64,000 bases of DNA from Escherichia coli (GTDB lineage: Bacteria > Pseudomonadota > Gammaproteobacteria > Enterobacterales > Enterobacteriaceae). The stretch lies in the NCBI RefSeq assembly GCF_002854065.1, contig NZ_CP024151.1; one strand, 5' to 3'. This document shows positions 40,830 through 58,138 of the stretch, piece after piece; position 1 is the stretch's first letter, and every line of letters begins with the position of its first letter. The notes under the pieces are model-generated. The model was not told where the DNA came from. It ran no database searches and saw nothing but the letters and a program-made list of their open reading frames with translations. The position numbers and the translations under genes are program-made.

Positions 40830-41200
40830 TTTTATTTCATTTACTAATAGTTTGGTCTGAAAAAAGAAGAGCACCCCTAGCAGCGCCCCTAGGGGCATAC
40901 TATAAAAAAACGCACGGCGCTGCTAGGGGCGGCCCTAATATATCCAAATGTTTTTCATAAAATTTGTCAGTACTGACCCTAACAAGGGTCGCCATAGGGT
41001 CGCCATAGGGTCGTCAACGCCCCTATTTAATAATGTAAAATAAATTAAAATACATTATTTAAAACATAAGCTAATGATTCAAAAAGCAAATCAGCAAAAA
41101 CTTGTTTTTGCGTGGGGTGTGGTGCTTTTGGTGGTGAGAACCACCAACCTGTTGAGCCTTTTTGTGGAGTGGGTTAAATTATTTACGGATAAAGTCACCA
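40830..41200 (+). other. oriT: oriT (origin of transfer); nic predicted between 41120 and 41121 on the plus strand
   Basis: F-type nick-region sequence TTTGCGTGGGGTGT|GGTGCTTTTGGTGGTGAGAACCACCAAC on the plus strand; upstream direct repeats GGGTCGCCATAGGGTCGCCATAGGGTCG and inverted repeats GCACCCCTAGCAGCGCCCCTAGGGGC (TraM/TraY-site-like). Confidence 0.8.
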
Positions 41201-41211
41201 GAGGTGGGAAA

Positions 41212-41721
41212 ATGAAAAAATGGATGTTAGCCATCTGCCTGATGTTTATAAATGAGATCTGTCTGGCCACTGATTGCTTTGATCTTGCAGGCAGGGATTA
41301 CAAAATAGATCCTGATTTACTGAGAGCAATATCATGGAAAGAATCCCGTTACCGGGTTAATGCCATCGGTATTAATCCGGTAACGGGATATGGCAGCGGA
41401 CTGATGCAGGTAGATTCCCAGCATTTTAACGAACTGGCCCGCTATGGAATTAAGCCGGAACATCTGACAACAGATCCCTGCATGAACATTTATACCGGTG
41501 CTTATTATCTGGCAATAGCCTTTAAAAAATGGGGCGTCTCCTGGGAGGCCGTTGGTGCATACAATGCCGGATTCAGGAAAACCGAACGCCAGAACCAGAG
41601 ACGTCTTGCCTACGCATCAGATGTTTACCGGATTTATACCGGGATAAAAAGCAGTAAAGGTATCCGGCTTCCGGCCACGAAGAAATCACTTCCGGAAATT
41701 AACAGCGAGCAGAACAATTAA
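41212..41721 (+). CDS. Lytic transglycosylase (orf169/geneX/P19 type), first gene of the leading region
   Basis: 169 aa from [12 protein letters not shown] (signal peptide) with SLT-like core ...[14 protein letters not shown]...GLMQV...AYNAG; SD GAGGTGGG before ATG 41212. Confidence 0.85.
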
Positions 41722-41974
41722 TCTTACAGACATTGTCAGATACCGGTTATGCCGCAAAAGCGGCATGGAAGGCCACACACAAAAATATCATATGAGTGAC
41801 AATACTGACTGGCCGAAGCCCCGCGAAGCGGGAACCCATCTTATATATACCCGGTAACTGCGCAGCCTCCTGCCAGACCATTTTTCGCGGGCACAATATT
41901 TACAGACAACCGGAAAGCCGGTTGATGAAATCGAGGTATATCAGACGACACAGCAATGCCGAAAAATGATAATA

Positions 41975-42003
41975 TAAGTAAAGCCCCGAAAATTTTTTCG
42001 GGG
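41975..42003. terminator. Bidirectional hairpin terminator
   Basis: AAAGCCCCGAAAATTTTTTCGGGGCTTT perfect inverted repeat flanked by A/T runs, between convergent orf169 and the DUF932-like gene. Confidence 0.55.
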
Positions 42004-42017
42004 CTTTACTTATATTA

Positions 42018-42839
42018 TCATGACTTCCACTTTCTGAACTGTTCGGCAATCACCCATAACGCCTTGTTGATTCTTATATCACCATCAATACCTGTAATGG
42101 CTCTTGTCATGGTATTTTTCCCGGAGGCACTTCGCCCCGATAATCCACCTTTTATCATATTCTCCTGAACCCGCTGCCAGGTCGTCCAGAGATCGTTCTG
42201 TTTATCCTCCCGACGACGGGGAGTAATTATCTGTTCAGGCGTCACTGGCGTTTTATTTTCATCTTCATACCTGACCATCAGTGCAGCTCTGCCAAATAAA
42301 TGTTGCTCGTCACTGTTAAGATGAATTTCTTTCATCGCCTCCATATTATCAGTGACCTTATCAAAGACACCGAGTACTTCATACGCTCCCTCGATAACCT
42401 GCCCGACAATATCACCTTTATGTGGAACGCGGATTTCGCCAAAATTATTTCCGCACACCAGGCCATTTGTGCAGACAAAACGAAAAATTCCGGGGATCAT
42501 CTGATAACTGGATGAACCATCATGTGAATTAAGCAGGATAATTTCAGGAACTTCCTGCCCGTTAATATGCCCTTCCCTGCGAAGACGTAACATATGTTTA
42601 CTGTATTCGCGACGTCCCAAATCACGAACCCGACTCTGACAGGCAAAGAATGGCTGGAAACCTTCATCACGTAACTTATTGATGATATTGATTGTTGGAA
42701 TATACGTATAACGTTCACTCCGGGACTTATGTTTATCACCGGAAAATACCGAAGGCACGAACTGCATTAATTCATCATCCGTTAAAGGACGTTCACGGCG
42801 GATGGAATTATACCGACCAAAACGGGAAGTTAATCGCAT
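42018..42839 (-). CDS. Leading-region protein, DUF932-like (function unknown)
   Basis: 273 aa from MRLTSRFGRYNSIRRERPLTDDEL...; SD AAGGAG before ATG at 42839. Family name from memory. Confidence 0.7.
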   Translation of the reverse strand: MRLTSRFGRYNSIRRERPLTDDELMQFVPSVFSGDKHKSRSERYTYIPTINIINKLRDEGFQPFFACQSRVRDLGRREYSKHMLRLRREGHINGQEVPEIILLNSHDGSSSYQMIPGIFRFVCTNGLVCGNNFGEIRVPHKGDIVGQVIEGAYEVLGVFDKVTDNMEAMKEIHLNSDEQHLFGRAALMVRYEDENKTPVTPEQIITPRRREDKQNDLWTTWQRVQENMIKGGLSGRSASGKNTMTRAITGIDGDIRINKALWVIAEQFRKWKS

Positions 42840-43261: not shown

Positions 43262-43885
43262 TCTGGTTTTCAGCCCCCATCATCTGTTGAGTTTCGGGAG
43301 CCGCGGTTTTGACGTTTTGCGGGGACCTGCCTTTTGTTCCCTCCGGTATTCACCATCACCTTTTTGAGAACCTTCGCCGCAAGGGGCATCACTGCCACGG
43401 CCGGAAACGACTGTCCGGGGGCAGACCGCAAAAGTTTTTGCCTGCTTTTGAGCAAAAAGTTTTGCGGGATGTGCATTTCACCCCTGGACTGGCGGAGACG
43501 GTTGTGGCTGTCTATGCCCCCGGCGACAGGGGCTTAAACAGGTGAATGGCACCGGACACAACAACGGGCAGGGACCCGCCGCAACGACGTGAAGCGCGGT
43601 TTGCGAAACGGCGTTGCCCCTTACATCCCGGCGGCCTTTTGCCGGGATGCCGGGAGCGCAGGCCACGGCGCGACAGAGGCGGCGCGACCGGAACGGTCGC
43701 TGCAAGCCCGGGGTTTTCACGCATCGGACCGTAGCGACAGCCCGAAACCGCGCCAGCGGGTTCGGCGGAGACTGGCAGGTGCGCCAGCAGCTGCCTGTCG
43801 GAGTCGGGTCTGACGACCGGATGCCGCCAGGCAGCCGGGAGCCGAAGGTGCGCCCGGCAGACAGGACAACACTGCAGTAGTCAGA
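43262..43885 (+). repeat. Dispersed leading-region repeat, copy 1 (Frpo/ssi-like candidate single-strand promoter)
   Basis: About 620 bp, roughly 98% identical to 48604..49220 by eye; GC-rich with many inverted repeats; non-coding despite multiple track ORFs on both strands. Confidence 0.6.
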
Positions 43886-44166
43886 ATCAGAGCAGGAAGA
43901 AAAAGAGAATAATCACAGGGAAGGTGATGTGATTTCTGACAGGCCATAACCAGAGAAGGCGGGGGAAAAGAACGGGCGCCGCAGGCGCGCGTTCATCCCC
44001 GTTCCTGAAGGGAAACGACCTTCCTGAAGTCAGGTTGTTCATGCCCGTACAACATCAGCAAGGAGAAAGGGGCTACCGGCGAACCAGCAGCCCCTTTATA
44101 AAGGCGCTTCAGTAGTCAGACCAGCATCAGTCCTGAAAAGGCGGGCCTGCGCCCGCCTCCAGGTTG

Positions 44167-44325
44167 CTACTTACCGGATTCGTAAGCCATGAAAGCCGCC
44201 ACCTCCCTGTGTCCGTCTCTGTAACGAATCTCGCACAGCGATTTTCGTGTCAGATAAGTGAATATCAACAGTGTGAGACACACGATCAACACACACCAGA
44301 CAAGGGAACTTCGTGGTAGTTTCAT
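44167..44325 (-). CDS. hok: Hok-family type I toxin (flmA/hok-like)
   Basis: Reverse translation [52 protein letters not shown], a 52-aa Hok; below the 60-aa track cut-off, found by reading the overlapping mok frame. Confidence 0.9.
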
Positions 44326-44383
44326 GGCCTTCTTCTCCTTGCGCAAAGCGCGGTAAGAGGCTATCCTGATGTGGACTAGACAT
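44171..44383 (-). CDS. mok: Mok (modulator of killing), overlapping reading frame of the hok locus
   Basis: 70-aa track ORF overlapping hok in an alternative frame and starting upstream, as in hok/mok/sok loci. Confidence 0.7.
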
Positions 44384-44400
44384 AGGGATGCCTCGTGGTG
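44325..44400 (+). ncRNA. sok: Predicted Sok-type antisense RNA
   Basis: Inferred from locus architecture (antisense to the mok translation-initiation region); no sequence-level confirmation, coordinates approximate. Confidence 0.35.
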
Positions 44401-44604
44401 GTTAATGAAAATTAACTTACTACGGGGCTATCTTCTTTCTGTCACACAACACGGCAACAAACCACCTTCACGTCATGAGGCAGAAAGCCTCAAGCGCCGG
44501 GCACATCATAGCCCATATACCTGCACGCTGACCACACTCACTTTCCCTGAAAATAATCCGCTCATTCAGACCGTTCACGGGAAATCCGTGTGATTGTTGC
44601 CGCA

Positions 44605-48580: not shown

Positions 48581-48603
48581 GATGTGCCTCCTTCTGTTGA
48601 TGT

Positions 48604-49220
48604 TTTCAGCCCCCATCATCTTTTGAGTTTCGGGAGCCGCGGTTTTGACGTTTTGCGGGGACCTGCCTTTTGTTCCCTCCGGTATTCACCATCACCTTTT
48701 TGAGAACCTTCGCCGCAAGGGGCATCACTGCCACGGACGGAAACGACTGTCCGGGGGCAGACCGCAAAAGTTTTTGCCTGCTTTTGGGCAAAAAGTTTTG
48801 CGGGATGTACATTTCACCCCTGGACTGGCGGAGACGGTTGTGGCTGTCTTTGCCCCCGGCGACAGGGGCTTAAACAGGTGAATGGCACCGGACAGAACAA
48901 CGGGCAGGGACCCGCCGCAACGACGTGAAGCGCGGTTTGCGAAACGGCGTTGCCCCTTACATCCCGGCGGTCTTTTGCCGGGATGCCAGGAGCGCAGGCC
49001 ACGGCGCGACAGAGGCGGCGCGACCGGAACGGTCGCTGCAAGCCAGGGGTTTTCACGCATCGGACCGTAGCGACAGCCCGAAACCGCGCCAGCGGGTTCG
49101 GCGGAGACTGGCAGGTGCGCCAGCAGCTGCCTGTCGGAGTCGGGCCTGACGACCGGATGCCGCCAGGCAGCCGGGAGCCGAAGGTGCGCCCGGCAGACAG
49201 GACAACACTGCAGTAGTCAG
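48604..49220 (+). repeat. Dispersed leading-region repeat, copy 2 (Frpo/ssi-like), upstream of ssb
   Basis: Near-identical to copy 1; immediately 5' (in minus-sense) of ssb, the classical position of the F Frpo element. Confidence 0.6.
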
Positions 49221-49246
49221 AATCAGAGCAGCAGGAAAAAGAAGAA

Positions 49247-49294
49247 CAGTAGCAGTAGCAGTAGCAGTAGCAGTAGCAGTAGCAGTAGCAGTAG
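49247..49294. repeat. Hexanucleotide microsatellite (CAGTAG)x8
   Basis: Perfect tandem array adjacent to repeat copy 2; the homologous positions after copies 1 and 3 lack the array. Confidence 0.9.
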
Positions 49295-51496: not shown

Positions 51497-51727
51497 TCAG
51501 TTAAAAGCGCGTTTCAGTTCGAGTGTGCGGAGCACCTGCCCGAAGGCCGTGTTTTTCATGGCGGGGATGTGTACACCACGCCCCCGGTGAAAACTCCGGG
51601 CAATGTGTCGCCCGAAGGCTTTCAGCACGGGGTCAATTTCCGGCGCGGGGATGTCTTCGCGTCTGAAACGGGGATGACGGCGGGGCTTTACAGCCGCTGC
51701 GGAAGGTGAAACAATACTTACTGTCAT
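51497..51727 (-). CDS. Hypothetical small basic protein, 76 aa
   Basis: First ORF downstream (minus-sense) of repeat copy 3; Arg/Lys-rich. Confidence 0.45.
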   Translation of the reverse strand: MTVSIVSPSAAAVKPRRHPRFRREDIPAPEIDPVLKAFGRHIARSFHRGRGVHIPAMKNTAFGQVLRTLELKRAFN

Positions 51728-51964
51728 AAATGAAACTCCTTATGACAAATTGGTTAACAATGCCGTCAAAATTGGTTGTGCAATTCTTACGGCGTGGATT
51801 AAGCAGGTCCCTGACCTGCTTTTTTCATATCTGCGTCTGACGTTCTACGGTGTTTTCCTCCTTCTGTTCCTGCGTTCTCATTACCTGCCAGCCGGATGAC
51901 TGACAGAACAAATAAATGCATATTGCCGGAGCCTGAAATAAATCCTGATTTTTAAAGAACATCA

Positions 51965-52575
51965 CCCGTTGAGTTTCGGGAGCCGCGGTTTTGACGTTTC
52001 GCGGGAACCTGCTGCTGTATTCCCTGTGGTATGAACTTCACCCGTTTGAGAACCTTCGCCGCAAGGGGCATCACTGCCACGGCCTGACGCACCTGTCCTG
52101 GGCAGAACGCAAAATTTTTTACCGGGTTTTGGGTAAAAAATTTTGTGGGCTGTTCATTTACCCTGGACAGTCAGTGCGGCAGGTTGTGGCTGTATCAGCC
52201 CCCGGCGACAGGGACTCATACGGGTGTGTGGCACCGGCAGGCAATGAGCAGGGACCCGCCGCAACGACGGAGAGCGCGTGCGCGAAACGGCGTTGCCCCT
52301 TACATCCCGGCGGCCTTTTGCCGGGATGCCGGGAGCGCAGGCCACGGCGCGACAAGGGTGGCGCGACCGGAACGGTCGCTGCAAGCCCGGGGTTTTCACG
52401 CATCGGACCGTAGCGACAGCCCGAAACCGCGCCAGCGGGTTCGGCGGAGACTGGCGGGTGCGCCAGCAGCTGCCTGTCGGAGTCGGGCCTGACGACCGGA
52501 TGCCGCCAGGCAGCCGGGAGCCGAAGGTGCGCCCGGCAGACAGAACAACACTGCAGTAGTCAGAATCAGAGCAGC
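51965..52575 (+). repeat. Dispersed leading-region repeat, copy 3 (Frpo/ssi-like), 5' half diverged
   Basis: 3' about 330 bp near-identical to copies 1 and 2 (CCCGCCGCAACGAC...GCAGTAGTCAGAATCAGAGCAG); 5' half recognisably related but diverged. Confidence 0.6.
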
Positions 52576-52764
52576 AGATAAAGGAACAACAACATCAGGA
52601 ACAGTTCCATAACATAAGAAAGAAACACTCCTGAGTCAGACACATCACAGACGGGAAGGGTAACGGGCGACGCGCCAGCGTGGCCCGCTTCCCTTCCGGC
52701 AGGCGTCAGCCTGCCAGGGGTTTTCGCGCGGACTGACAGGCGGCCTCCACCGCCTGCCCCTGTA

Positions 52765-53433: not shown

Positions 53434-53859
53434 TCAGTCCAGAGCCGCGTAAATCGCGTTGCATTCGGGGTGAAATTCGATGTGACGCCACAACTGCGCA
53501 TCGCGCATCCGGTAAAGCTGGGTCAGTCCTGCATCCCCGCTGTCGTGGTACAGCCACAACTGGCGGTTAATCACAAGGGAGGTCAGGATGATGCCTGCGG
53601 CATCAGCACTCACGGTACGGTCAAACCAGTTTGCACCGTTCACCATGTGGAAACGGTCGCCATCCGGCATCATGTAACCGCCACCGTCCGGCAGGCGGAT
53701 GAAGTGCCAGAAGCCTCCCTGATATTCCGGCATCATTTTTTGCGCCAGCGCGTACACATACGCCTCGGCATACAGAAAATCGTTGCCAAACAGATACGGC
53801 AGAAAGGAGAGACGGTCGCACTCTTCAACATTCAGAGTGACAGGTTTCGCATATTGCAT
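53434..53859 (-). CDS. klcA: KlcA/ArdB-family antirestriction protein
   Basis: 141 aa; ...[21 protein letters not shown]...[18 protein letters not shown]...[27 protein letters not shown]...[12 protein letters not shown], the conserved KlcA/ArdB pattern as I remember it. Confidence 0.85.
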
Positions 53860-54275
53860 GATGTTTTCCTCCGTTGTTCACATATTCCGCGACACCGGGC
53901 GGTGCCGTGCCTCCATAAAAGCCGGGCGAACAGGCGGGGATGCAGGGGCGCAAGGGAAGCCGCAGCCTGACGCACACGGCTGACGGGAGTTGCAGGGTGA
54001 GACCGCGAAATCTGAGCGGGTGAACGACCGGAAAATCACGGCAGACGGGAAGGAGGGACCGGGTGACCGCAGCGGCGAAGCGTACCCTTGCATCAACGCC
54101 AGCCCGGCTAAGATGGAGGCACGGCACAGCCCGCACACGACGCTGAGGCCACATAACTGAAAAACCACAAGGCCATGCCCTGCATGGCCGGGTAAAGCGG
54201 AGCCGGCGGCGACTTCCTTTGTGCTCTGTCCGGGGACCGGCAGGAAAAAGGCGGGGATTTACCCCGCCAGTGTCA

Positions 54276-55772: not shown

Positions 55773-56456
55773 TTACGCAGCCTCCGGTTCAAACCAGTTA
55801 TCATTCGCGGCCCCCTGCTGCATGGCCCGTTGCACGGCGGCCAGTCGTTGCTGTCCGGCACGGTGATACTGTTCAAGCAGCTCGATACCGATATACCGGC
55901 GTCCGGACTGGAGGGCGGCCACGCAGGTTGAGCCGCTGCCTGCAAACGGGTCCAGCACAATCGCGTTCGGATGTGTGAAGCTCTCAATCAGTGGTTGCAG
56001 GCTGGTAACGGGCTTTTCCGTCGGGTGATGGCGGTTGCCCGAATATTTCCAGCCCAGCACGTCGGGTAATGGCTTCGGAGGCAGCGCCGGACGGCCTTTT
56101 GCCAGGATATAGGCGCATTCGTGACGGTACGCGACATACGCAGATTTGGATGTGTAGCTTTTGGTGAACACAAGGTGCCCTACAACGCTGAATCCGGCGC
56201 GTTTCCAGGCTGCCATAAAGCGGTCAATACGGTTCCAGCCATAGAAACTCACCATCAGCGCATCTTTTTTTAGTACGCGGTACATCTCATTACTGGCAGG
56301 TTGCAGCCAGTCATCGTTAACGTCACCGGCAATGGTGCGCCCGGAACGGTCACGAAAACCAACGAGATATGGTGGGTCGGTTAAGATGAAATCAATGGCG
56401 TTATCAGGAATCGTGGCCATAACACGCACGCAGTCACCCAGGATAAAACGGGACAT
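55773..56456 (-). CDS. Orphan DNA methyltransferase, beta class (N6-adenine or N4-cytosine; YhdJ-like)
   Basis: 227 aa; motif IV DPPY near the N-terminus (..DFILTDPPYLVGF..), HPTEKP, and motif I DPFAGSGST near the C-terminus, the circularly permuted beta-class order; no adjacent restriction endonuclease candidate. Confidence 0.85.
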   Translation of the reverse strand: MSRFILGDCVRVMATIPDNAIDFILTDPPYLVGFRDRSGRTIAGDVNDDWLQPASNEMYRVLKKDALMVSFYGWNRIDRFMAAWKRAGFSVVGHLVFTKSYTSKSAYVAYRHECAYILAKGRPALPPKPLPDVLGWKYSGNRHHPTEKPVTSLQPLIESFTHPNAIVLDPFAGSGSTCVAALQSGRRYIGIELLEQYHRAGQQRLAAVQRAMQQGAANDNWFEPEAA

Positions 56457-56841
56457 AACAGCACTCCTCCTCTTACAGAGGGCACCGGGAGGGCGCCCCT
56501 GTGGCGCCCGTTCTCCGCTGCCTGTGGGCTGTTCACCGCGTCCGGTAACGGGTCAGGCCGACCGTGGAATACCGCAGCCGTCGTCTTTCTGACGGCGAGG
56601 ATATGCCGCGAAAGCGGCTTGAAGGGCATTCATCAGAAAAGGGCGACAGGCTGGCGTACACTGTCACCGACGCCAGCCAGGAGCGGTAAAAGCGCCCGTC
56701 CCGTGCCCGGCCGGACACGGGACACTGACCACAGGCAGCGTTCCTGCCGCGCCGCGTCAGCCGGCGCAGTAAAAAGAGGAGCACGGCGACATCCTTTGTC
56801 GGAAAAGAAACGGGCGGTTGCCCGCCCGTCTCCGTCATACT

Positions 56842-57768
56842 TCATCCGCCATAATGCGCCACCTTGTCGACTATCCACGCAGGTCCGGTGACTTCCGGCA
56901 GCTCATCGTCATCTGTCGGGGAAGACCATTCAAGTTCCCCCCACAGCACATCAACGAGCTCTCCACGCTCATACAACTGCCAGCCACAGAAATTGCAGCC
57001 TTGTTCGGCGTACCAGTGCTCCAGCGTGCAGCTGAAACGGCGGCTTAATTCTGCAACAACGTCGCTTTCCGGCTGACACCACGGCGTGTCGAAATCCACC
57101 TGAATGAAGTTTTCTCCCTGACTGCTGATATTCAGGTCATACCCACAAGGCCACTTCACGCCATACCGTTCGGTATACCAGTGATATGCAGAAGGAACAC
57201 CGTTCAGAACACCACCGTTAAAGCCATTCACTTCAACATCCAGGCGGGTCGGCAGAACCGTCAGCAGGTCAAACGGCATGGTTTTTTCCGGCAGCACGTT
57301 GTCACACAGACGGTTCCACCACACCGATACATCCTCGTTACCCCAGATGTCACACCAGTCACCTCTTTTTGCGGTGAAATGCACAGTGATGATTTCCCTG
57401 ACATCATCCGGTAATCCTTCCCAGCGACGCTGTCCAGTACCGCTCTGCAGCCAGAGTTTATGCAGCATCAGGCAGTTTTGCTCATCCAGCAGTACACCGT
57501 CCTGCAGGTATGTCAGCCAGCGGGTGAACGCGATATTCTCCGGCGATACAACGCCACGCCCGGCAGCCGTCAGTCCGGGGCATGGTTCAAACCGCACATC
57601 TTCAGTGGTCTGCAGAAGTCCGGCACTTCCGGCCAGAAACAGCTGAATACCTTCATTTGTGGCGCGGCGATAAAGCGGTGTGACTGCACCGCTGGCCAGT
57701 CGTTTAATCTCAGCAATCTGTGCCGGTTCACCAGAAAAATGCATACGATTTGAGCACCAGTTTGGCAT
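56842..57768 (-). CDS. Conserved leading-region protein (DUF1281-like), unknown function
   Basis: 309 aa from MPNWCSNRMHFSGEPAQIAEIKRL...; SD AGGAGA before ATG 57768; Trp/Cys-rich. Family name from memory. Confidence 0.7.
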   Translation of the reverse strand: MPNWCSNRMHFSGEPAQIAEIKRLASGAVTPLYRRATNEGIQLFLAGSAGLLQTTEDVRFEPCPGLTAAGRGVVSPENIAFTRWLTYLQDGVLLDEQNCLMLHKLWLQSGTGQRRWEGLPDDVREIITVHFTAKRGDWCDIWGNEDVSVWWNRLCDNVLPEKTMPFDLLTVLPTRLDVEVNGFNGGVLNGVPSAYHWYTERYGVKWPCGYDLNISSQGENFIQVDFDTPWCQPESDVVAELSRRFSCTLEHWYAEQGCNFCGWQLYERGELVDVLWGELEWSSPTDDDELPEVTGPAWIVDKVAHYGG

Positions 57769-58122
57769 GGGAATTCTCCTCTCACATGCGGCCTCTATCA
57801 GGCCGTGCCGCACCTGTAACCGGGCGACCGCATACGAATGCAGGTGCGGCCCCGAAGCCGCAGCGCGTGGAGGAGGAACGACGAAACGTGACCGGGTGAG
57901 GAGGCCGGCGACAGCGACACACTTGCATCGGATGCAGCCCGGTTAACGTGCCGGCACGGCCTGGGTAACCAGGTATTTTATTCACAGAACCGTGCGCAAA
58001 ATGCTGTGGATAAGCTGGACACAGCAGTCCACAGCAGGCATACAGCCACACCCTCAGAGAATTGAGCGTTTTTTAGTCACAATAATGACATTTGACTGTG
58101 TGTGGATTCAGTTATTAGAATG

Positions 58123-58138
58123 CTGTATATACATACAG
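58123..58138 (+). promoter_or_regulatory. LexA (SOS) box overlapping the promoter of the dinI/umuDC-like operon
   Basis: CTGTATATACATACAG (CTGT-N8-ACAG) immediately downstream of TTGACT (58092..58097) and TAGAAT (58116..58121) with 18-bp spacing. Confidence 0.8.

Follow-up and report, generated by a model that had tools for sequence, protein, structure and literature searches.

The two GC-rich intergenic blocks that precede klcA and a DNA methylase gene in a 64,000-nucleotide stretch of Escherichia coli DNA (the window) are very probably leading-region promoters that act from single-stranded DNA (ssDNA), the klcA-proximal block (block A) belonging to class 2 (ssp2-type) and the methylase-proximal block (block B) to class 3 (M.EcoGIX-type). 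The case made here combines homology, strand, fold, promoter geometry, conservation and covariation, while induction, transcription start sites and roadblock activity have been determined by others on orthologues. As judged from sequence, block A corresponds to ssp2/class 2 and block B to class 3; both are already known elements, described experimentally in December 2025 and January 2026. For this plasmid, we infer the exact transcription start and the block B promoter boxes.

Plasmid context, transferred strand and published counterparts

By sequence, the window reads as an IncF plasmid. The 3.8-kb stretch around the blocks matches at 100% identity the IncFIB/FIC plasmid NZ_CP055056.1 (117 kb, conjugative) of Shigella dysenteriae, and more than 5000 plasmid records match the same stretch at 92% identity or higher. 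All genes of the leading region (psiA, psiB, a parB-like gene, ssb, klcA, the DNA methylase gene and a DUF1281 gene) lie on the - strand, with a divergent dinI-umuD pair beyond them. The sequence TTTTTGCGTGGGGTGT and GGTGCTTTTGGTGG, joined at the nick, occupies 41105-41133 of the + strand with an exact core 13-mer at 41114-41126, and we take it to be the F oriT nick site, with the nick falling between 41120 and 41121. Because this F nick sequence sits on the + strand, the + strand is the one transferred, as the preliminary description had assumed; its 5' end leads into the recipient, higher coordinates follow, and every leading-region gene is templated by it. Lying on the - strand 12.8 kb from the nick, klcA has the leading-region position and the + strand template expected for class 2. 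Three Frpo-type repeats were located by sensitive blastn at 43266-43906, 48600-49250 and 51960-52591. A strong fold at 41750-42049 proved to be a plain bidirectional terminator.

Block A (53860-54275) fills exactly the gap between the klcA ATG (53859) and the stop codon of a 275-aa open reading frame (54276), and block B (56457-56841) that between the methylase ATG (56456) and the stop codon of the DUF1281 gene (56842). The preliminary description had called both blocks non-coding, GC-rich and dense in inverted repeats, and each point was borne out. The GC contents were 63.5% (block A) and 64.9% (block B); the window as a whole has 52.4%, and the flanking genes have 55-60%. Folded as + strand ssDNA, a check that had been proposed for them, the blocks reached -103.1 kcal/mol (z = -4.4 versus dinucleotide shuffles) and -108.4 kcal/mol (z = -6.1), respectively, and none of 100 shuffles folded as well as either. 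The - strand of both blocks folds equally well, and folding energy does not tell the strands apart. In a rerun of the published screen over 40000-64000, with DNA parameters and 300-nt windows moved in steps of 10 nt, the only elements to pass the -75 kcal/mol threshold were the three Frpo repeats, block A (-80.0 kcal/mol) and block B (-87.8 kcal/mol). As also claimed beforehand, the blocks share no sequence with the three repeats: sensitive blastn returned no significant similarity of either block to the Frpo copies (best E = 0.18), so that the sequence homology of class 1 (Frpo/ssi) is absent from both, and it likewise found none between block A and block B. No Rfam family matched the blocks.

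The published counterparts come from two recent studies. In RNA-seq of early transconjugants of the IncI1 plasmid pESBL with donors removed, Wen et al. (Nucleic Acids Res 2025, gkaf1299) saw strong induction of six operons. Hairpins of the ssi1-3/Frpo type (class 1) drive three of them, two hairpins that resemble each other and lie 5' of klcA and ardA (class 2) drive another two, and a distinct hairpin 5' of M.EcoGIX (class 3) drives the last. The authors also describe start sites mapped by 5' RACE in transconjugants, transient induction that was prolonged or stronger in a uvrD recipient, in which conversion to duplex is delayed, and conservation of classes 2 and 3 in F. A preprint from the Lesterlin group (January 2026, bioRxiv 10.64898/2026.01.09.698686) names the F elements ssp1 (Frpo), ssp2 and ssp3. 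There, ssp2 controls and drives yfgB, a KlcA/ArdB homologue; the ssp2 stem holds up synthesis of the complementary strand at its end until UvrD melts it; and deletion of ssp2 lowers transfer into restricting E. coli hosts by at least 21-fold. In the same preprint, ssp3 has a promoter strength like that of ssp2 without roadblock activity, and placing it where ssp2 had been restores transfer into a type II restricting host. Going by the numbering only, ssp3 of F is presumably class 3.

We aligned the gaps matching the two blocks in pESBL-EA11 and F. In the three-way alignment, block A showed 97% mean column identity to the klcA-upstream regions of pESBL and F (97.3% and 96.5%, respectively, over the hairpin itself), and block B showed 97% to the stretch preceding M.EcoGIX in pESBL and to the equivalent stretch of F, with 95-96% identity over the structure in five plasmids. 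This degree of identity to published class 2 and 3 elements upholds the earlier suggestion that the blocks are divergent members of the Frpo functional class, placed where promoters of leading genes would be. Block A agrees with class 2 of pESBL and ssp2 of F in position, KlcA protein (the accession in Table 1 is common to the window and pESBL), strand and fold, and differs in nothing material, the few substitutions falling mostly at unpaired positions. Block B, like class 3 of pESBL, lies directly upstream of a homologous methylase gene; it carries window-specific substitutions, including TTCC versus TTTA at 56742-56743 in the junction region. With class 1 (Frpo, which is ssiD of F, and ssi1-3 of ColIb-P9; Masai & Arai 1997; Bates 1999; Nasim 2004) the blocks have no sequence similarity, yet they share its logic: a leading-region hairpin of the transferred strand rebuilds sigma-70 elements with an unpaired -10 and falls silent once duplex. 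In the three Frpo copies of the window the corresponding TACATT lies in a 9-nt bulge. In class 1, whose hairpin measures 319 nt, the promoter is placed close to the apex and the -10 in a one-sided bulge; in class 2 the promoter is in the basal third and the -10 in a symmetric 3x3 loop.

Anatomy of the two hairpins

Coordinates are collected in Table 1. For klcA to be transcribed, the + strand has to be read in the direction of falling coordinates, which makes the 5' arm of the block A hairpin the template and the 3' arm the non-template strand. The 3' arm carries TTGCAT-15-TAAGAT, the best sigma-70-like match on the + strand, directed toward klcA; in the predicted fold the first T of the -10 is paired, AAG lies in the bubble and the final AT is paired. 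Block A therefore has what distinguishes class 2, a stem-loop of the transferred strand that rebuilds a -35 and a -10 pointing at the gene. The non-template spacer of 15 nt (20 nt in the variant allele described below) is outside the sigma-70 optimum, and on the modelled fold bulges must make up the promoter geometry. Transcription would start 7 nt past the -10, at A54121 opposite T53908, giving a leader of approximately 49 nt with a GGAGG ribosome-binding site. A consensus scan of the duplex found no sigma-70 consensus promoter on the coding strand within either block, and the duplex coding strand of block A reads CTGCAT-19-TTTTAT; shut-off upon conversion to double-stranded DNA fits this absence.

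Table 1. Features of the leading region discussed in the text, with positions in the window.
Feature	Position	Strand	Remarks
F-type oriT nick region	41110..41130	+	GCGTGGGGTGT and GGTGCTTTT on either side of the nick; exact match
klcA/ardB-type antirestriction gene	53434..53859	-	WP_001198928.1; served by block A
klcA 5' leader with Shine-Dalgarno	53860..53887	-	GGAGGAAAACATC-ATG; hairpin base to start codon
Class 2 (ssp2-type) hairpin, 255 nt	53888..54142	+	Fold; 96-97% identity to pESBL/F; covariation
Predicted template position of start	53906..53910	+	About 53908, opposite A54121; from -10 spacing
-35-like TTGCAT	54088..54093	+	All paired with 53941-53946 (one G.T pair)
-10-like TAAGAT	54109..54114	+	54110-54112 (AAG) opposite 53917-53919 (AAA); 3x3 internal loop
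Terminator-like hairpin	54171..54189	-	GGCCATGCAGGGCATGGCC + TTGTGGTTTT
Rho-independent terminator of upstream operon	54250..54268	-	GGCGGGGTAAATCCCCGCC + TTTTT
DNA methylase gene, M.EcoGIX homologue	55773..56456	-	Served by block B
Class 3 branched stem-loop of transferred strand	56467..56781	+	Fold; 95-96% identity
Side hairpin GGGCGCC-CCTGT-GGCGCCC	56491..56509	+	Compensatory G-C to A-T in 3 of 6 plasmids
Hairpin GTCCCGTG...CACGGGAC	56698..56723	+	Example in preliminary description; partly pairs with 5' arm in minimum-energy fold
Candidate class 3 -10, T[AAA]AA	56770..56775	+	Bulged AAA at base of structure; putative
Rho-independent terminator of DUF1281 gene	56810..56829	-	ACGGGCGGGCAACCGCCCGT + TTCTTTTCC
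DUF1281 gene	56842..57771	-	Likely true start ATG 57771 behind GAGAGGAG, versus annotated 57744
Block C, class-2-like hairpin, 165 nt	57799..57963	+	blastn, folds, module alignment

Block B serves an operon in which the methylase gene is followed by open reading frames of 73 aa, 144 aa (DUF1380) and 275 aa. A strong fold of the transferred strand stands directly 5' of the methylase gene, which is the arrangement of class 3. The basal helix (CTCCTCTT-AC paired with GT-AAA-AAGAGGAG) takes in the methylase ribosome-binding site; above it, a long stem joins 56516-56545 with 56711-56740, and there are several apical branches and side hairpins, one of the latter at 56749-56767. The block contains a 12-bp perfect stem (CGCTGCCTGTGG with CCACAGGCAGCG) that extends into a longer imperfect one. 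No convincing -35/-10 pair was found in block B, a sigma-70 weight-matrix scan giving only weak matches. The closest analogue of the class 2 design is the candidate -10 with the bulged AAA, yet it has no T-7, and a transcript from it would have a leader of just ~11 nt. TACACT (56657), the sole TAnnnT on the 3' half of the block, was rejected as a -10: it sits in an apical loop, where a template geometry is impossible.

RefSeq places a 101-104-aa 'hypothetical protein' inside block B and annotates it in thousands of plasmids. Over the first ~45 codons, the frame in pESBL and pU13A_B differs from that in the window and F by a 1-nt indel, leaving no protein similarity, although the DNA of the reading frame is ~95% identical. 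Because the N-terminal half is in a different frame in different plasmids, we consider the reading frame spurious and the block non-coding.

A GC-rich stem with a T run after a stop codon, the signature of Rho-independent termination, occurs only at the far end of each block, and each block would be an ssDNA promoter fused there to the terminator of the preceding operon. The terminator alternative raised in the preliminary description accordingly holds for the far ends and fails for the rest, the terminators taking up less than 100 nt of each ~400-nt block. Both example hairpins offered in that description belong to block B, and neither lies inside 53860-54275. The second (ACGGGCGGTTGCCCGCCCGT, 56810-56829), presented as a promoter-class hairpin, belongs to no promoter: read on the coding strand, it serves the DUF1281 gene as Rho-independent terminator. 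The far-end terminators had been missed there, as had a third hairpin upstream of the DUF1281 gene.

Conservation, covariation and a candidate further member

Conservation was assessed in a panel of pESBL, F and three other plasmid contigs; one further locus (L017), whose genes are full of frameshifts, was left out. Throughout this panel the hairpins were conserved at least as well as neighbouring genes, with per-plasmid identities over the hairpins of 89.8-100%, a range spanned by block A alone; the block B hairpin was 95-96% identical versus 87-90% for the methylase gene. The comparison with F-like leading regions that had been proposed as a check thus came out in favour of conservation, and the stems covary, as set out below. 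Of 5426 complete E. coli genomes, 3683 contained block A and 3436 contained block B, nearly always on plasmids.

A second allele of block A lies within the 80-90% identity band, to which 1357 E. coli records belong; pU13A_B, RMDEC364 and one further locus (L005) were checked as examples. It changes precisely the promoter region, and does so on both arms. The -35 goes from TTGCAT to TTGCAA with a compensatory ATGCAG to TTGCAA on the template arm, and the -10 is now TACGAT, opposite template bases that have turned from AAAA into CTTT and are still largely mismatched. The extra spacer bases also move, from the template arm (19 vs 15) to the non-template arm (20 vs 15).

More distant relatives were found among the computational 'Frpo-like' candidates from an insect-gut metagenome element in Supplementary file 4 of Samuel et al. 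(Nature 2024). Frpo' 4 of that file is a diverged homologue of block A along its full length, and Frpo* 1 (TTGCGA-15-TAAGGT) and Frpo* 3 (TTGTCT-15-TACAGT) share the class 2 promoter module; all three differ from block A in being computational candidates only, in having been given no separate class and in residing on a different host element. We aligned the modules of six types without gaps: the three metagenome sequences, block A, its second allele and block C (the third hairpin, described below). In all six class 2 modules the -10 keeps T-12, A-11 and T-7. In the two flanking stems 90.6% of cells pair, compared with 29-38% in slid registers; 7 of 23 pairs were changed on both sides, and the covariation score was reached by none of 500 shuffles. 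Only 4 of the 18 cells of the -10 loop are able to pair. Such a pattern is expected if selection maintains a sigma-70 -10 in a pre-opened bubble. Folding the variants separately and aligning the modules without gaps worked better than RNAalifold on a MAFFT alignment of block A variants, which mis-registered the -35 region and yielded little covariation. When the class 2 core pattern was searched for in a set holding a single genome for each species, 10 stretches only were returned, and no new diversity. Among the matches set aside, one in hisIE of Idiomarina was a chance match without a hairpin, three were mini-F BAC/fosmid vector backbone ending inside block C, and the remainder were fragments of enterobacterial plasmids within assemblies that bear the names of other taxa.

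Block C lies upstream of the DUF1281 gene. Both arms of block A were matched there by blastn, in order, at 57802-57864 and 57890-57960, and the 3' arm reads TTGCAT (57923-57928), 15 nt and TAACGT (57944-57949), the AC of which is unpaired. Block C therefore has both homologous arms of class 2, and its -35, GCCCGG spacer, bubbled -10 and GGCACGGC start region follow one another in the class 2 arrangement. The distance from hairpin base to ATG is 28 nt in block C and about 28-29 nt in block A, and an ATGTGA motif is common to the two leaders. Block C was 98.8-100% identical in pESBL, F and two other plasmids (95-97% for the DUF1281 gene), occurred in 2821 of 5426 complete E. coli genomes, and is kept in F though the DUF1281 reading frame is split there. 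It differs from class 2 of pESBL in being 90 nt shorter and in preceding a DUF1281 gene. In the published-style screen it reached -74.1 kcal/mol, narrowly short of the -75 cut-off.

Our tentative suggestion, which we hold to be possible rather than probable, is that block C is a third, compact class-2-type ssDNA promoter or priming signal, serving the DUF1281 gene in IncF and IncI plasmids and unlisted owing to its -74.1 kcal/mol. Wen et al. (gkaf1299) do not name it in their text as one of the six pESBL promoters; the DUF1281 gene (O3K_RS25890 in pESBL) may perhaps not be strongly induced, and block C as an extra class 2 member may be unreported. With it included, class 2 would be a module family consisting of a paired TTGnnn, a GCCCGG-containing spacer, a TAnnnT with an unpaired centre and a paired GGCACGGC, with at least two common ssp2 alleles whose spacer bulges are on opposite arms. 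If true, this module is directly searchable.

Proposed mechanism, alternatives and significance

On the reading that we favour, conjugation would bring the + strand in 5' first from 41120/41121, so that block A would arrive after ~12.8 kb and block B after ~15.4 kb, and each block would fold on itself once both of its arms were inside the recipient. The 3' (non-template) arm of block A would then show the host's sigma-70 RNA polymerase a paired TTGCAT and a mismatch-opened TAAGAT, while the 5' arm, as template, would run on into klcA and the downstream genes, allowing transcription without a complementary strand. Anti-restriction and methylase genes would in this way be expressed within minutes of entry. 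Once the complementary strand had been made, the hairpin would be ironed out, leaving only the poor coding-strand promoter, and expression would stop. The F copy of block A, in addition, stalls complementary-strand synthesis until UvrD acts, which would keep downstream promoters single-stranded for longer. ssDNA phages offer parallels in the minus-strand origin of M13/f1, which is read by sigma-70 RNA polymerase, and in the hairpin promoters of the N4 virion RNA polymerase; in both, RNA polymerase recognises a folded single strand before a complementary strand exists. They are unlike the blocks in that the M13 product is a primer, not an mRNA, that N4 uses its own polymerase and small hairpins, and that there is no sequence relation.

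An alternative, which we consider unlikely, is that the blocks are mainly structural, acting as priming sites (ssi) or programmed roadblocks with promoter activity secondary or absent. Class 1 Frpo transcripts do prime DNA synthesis, ssp2 does stall synthesis until UvrD acts, and GC-rich stems of 255-315 nt far exceed what a promoter needs. Against this, ssp2 drives yfgB (klcA), and ssp3 substitutes for ssp2 in transfer into a type II restricting host though it is no roadblock; moreover, the invariant T-12, A-11 and T-7 and the conserved bubble are features of a promoter rather than of a helicase barrier. For block A, a structural role complements the promoter reading rather than replacing it. 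Less likely still, by a clear step, is that these are ordinary intergenic regions combining a duplex promoter for the downstream operon with an upstream terminator. Rho-independent terminators do end each block (54250-54268, 54171-54189 and 56810-56829), but they occupy a minor part of it, the coding strand offers no sigma-70 consensus (in block A, only CTGCAT-19-TTTTAT), and the orthologues were induced transiently in transconjugants, more so with delayed conversion in a uvrD mutant, as reported by Wen et al. (gkaf1299).

We regard as extremely improbable both a role at the RNA level (as leader, attenuator or small RNA, or through a 101-aa protein encoded by block B) and, to the same degree, the notion that the blocks are non-functional filler or decayed repeats. 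In keeping with an RNA role, the RNA-sense - strand folds about as well as the + strand, and RefSeq does list a reading frame in block B; yet Rfam holds no match, the terminators part the blocks from upstream transcription, and the frame switch between plasmids over the first ~45 codons excludes a coding function. Furthermore, if transcription starts near 53908, only ~20 nt of one arm would be included in the klcA mRNA, and the hairpin could therefore not form in RNA. Filler is suggested by lack of annotation only; it is contradicted by the spread of the blocks among 5426 complete E. coli genomes (3683 with block A, 3436 with block B), by conservation like or above that of adjacent genes, by the compensatory changes and by the reported loss of transfer into restricting hosts when ssp2 of F is deleted.

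With the blocks read as ssDNA promoters, a sequence-only reading has recovered a recently published class of elements; what is added here is that the class 2 module is defined more sharply, in both sequence and structure, and gains one candidate member. The hairpins are found in roughly two thirds of complete E. coli genomes; in RefSeq they are unannotated or mislabelled as a hypothetical protein. They would let the plasmid express its KlcA/ArdB and protective methylase genes before the host attacks the incoming DNA.

A further hairpin upstream of the DUF1281 gene

Block C, 165 nt long and located 5' of the DUF1281 gene, is a hairpin whose arms, -35 (TTGCAT), GCCCGG spacer, bubbled -10 (TAACGT) and GGCACGGC region are homologous to their counterparts in block A, the class 2 hairpin upstream of klcA. 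It is conserved at 98.8-100%. Its fold score of -74.1 kcal/mol narrowly misses the published screen cut-off for such hairpins (-75 kcal/mol), and it is absent from the six pESBL promoters named in the text of Wen et al. (gkaf1299). For the downstream gene, ATG 57771 (- strand), preceded by GAGAGGAG, is the probable start; the annotated start in the window's own record is 57744 (- strand), and the pESBL annotation uses the equivalent of ATG 57771. DUF1281 is probably a pseudogene in F because its reading frame there (L004 4811-5781) is split into two ORFs of 183 and 145 aa, yet the hairpin is retained in F at 97-99% identity despite this disruption.

Coordinates of the features (window unless a comparison locus, L, is named)
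Feature	Position	Strand	Remark
Second GC-rich folding regions, Frpo repeats	43560-43859, 48900-49199, 52220-52519
Block C	57799-57963		upstream of DUF1281 gene
Block C counterparts	L003:3255-3450, L004:4639-4834	-
Second class 2 klcA promoter allele	L015:3501-3771, L016:3501-3771, L005:6899-7169
Perfect 26-bp palindrome ATGATAATATAAGTAAAGCCCCGAAAA/TTTTCGGGGCTTTACTTATATTATCAT	41965-42020
AS-pc01 antisense RNA	51722-51824	+	Rfam, 91.3 bits, exceeds gathering score
sok antitoxin RNA	44323-44499	-	Rfam, exceeds gathering score; adjoins hok
Consensus-like promoter TTGACT-18-TAGAAT	58092-58138	+	upstream of dinI-umuD
Mini-F backbone, assemblies under other taxon names	L007 5531-10210, L010 10248-11710, L013 2629-3032
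RefSeq 'hypothetical protein' WP_063073472.1	56533-56838	-	overlies class 3 hairpin

Probable database artefacts at the hairpins

Mini-F backbone (repE-sopABC) at 99.4-99.9% identity was found in assemblies labelled Raphidiopsis brookii D9, Alicyclobacillus fastidiosus (on 'plasmid unnamed3', 39.8 kb) and Aeromicrobium sp., and in all three the match terminates within block C, which points to leftover BAC/fosmid vector in public genomes. Equivalents of WP_063073472.1 are annotated not only in F and pESBL but across thousands of plasmids; since the frame of the N-terminal half varies from plasmid to plasmid, this ORF is a spurious gene call.

Neighboring elements

The promoter upstream of dinI-umuD overlaps the LexA-box-like CTGTATATACATACAG and is divergent from block C; it is a predicted conventional SOS-regulated duplex promoter adjoining a single-strand element. 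The palindrome, which sits between an SLT-domain gene and the DUF932-like ORF with which it converges, in a region (41700-42100) with a folding z of -9.0, looks like a bidirectional terminator. All three ~640-nt Frpo repeats (class 1 promoter copies) carry an additional, very stable fold upstream of the 319-nt promoter hairpin (GC 71-72%; between -88 and -93 kcal/mol for each 300-nt stretch). The AS-pc01 match lies immediately downstream of the first gene of the third repeat.

A second allele of the klcA promoter

A second klcA promoter allele is common; it falls in the 80-90% identity band, which comprises 1357 E. coli records. Its boxes are TTGCAA (-35) and TACGAT (-10), the template bases opposite the -10 are CTTT, compared with AAAA in block A, and the spacer bulges lie on the opposite arm, with a non-template spacer of 20 nt rather than 15 nt. 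Compared with block A, this allele may be a stronger or weaker promoter or act differently as a roadblock.
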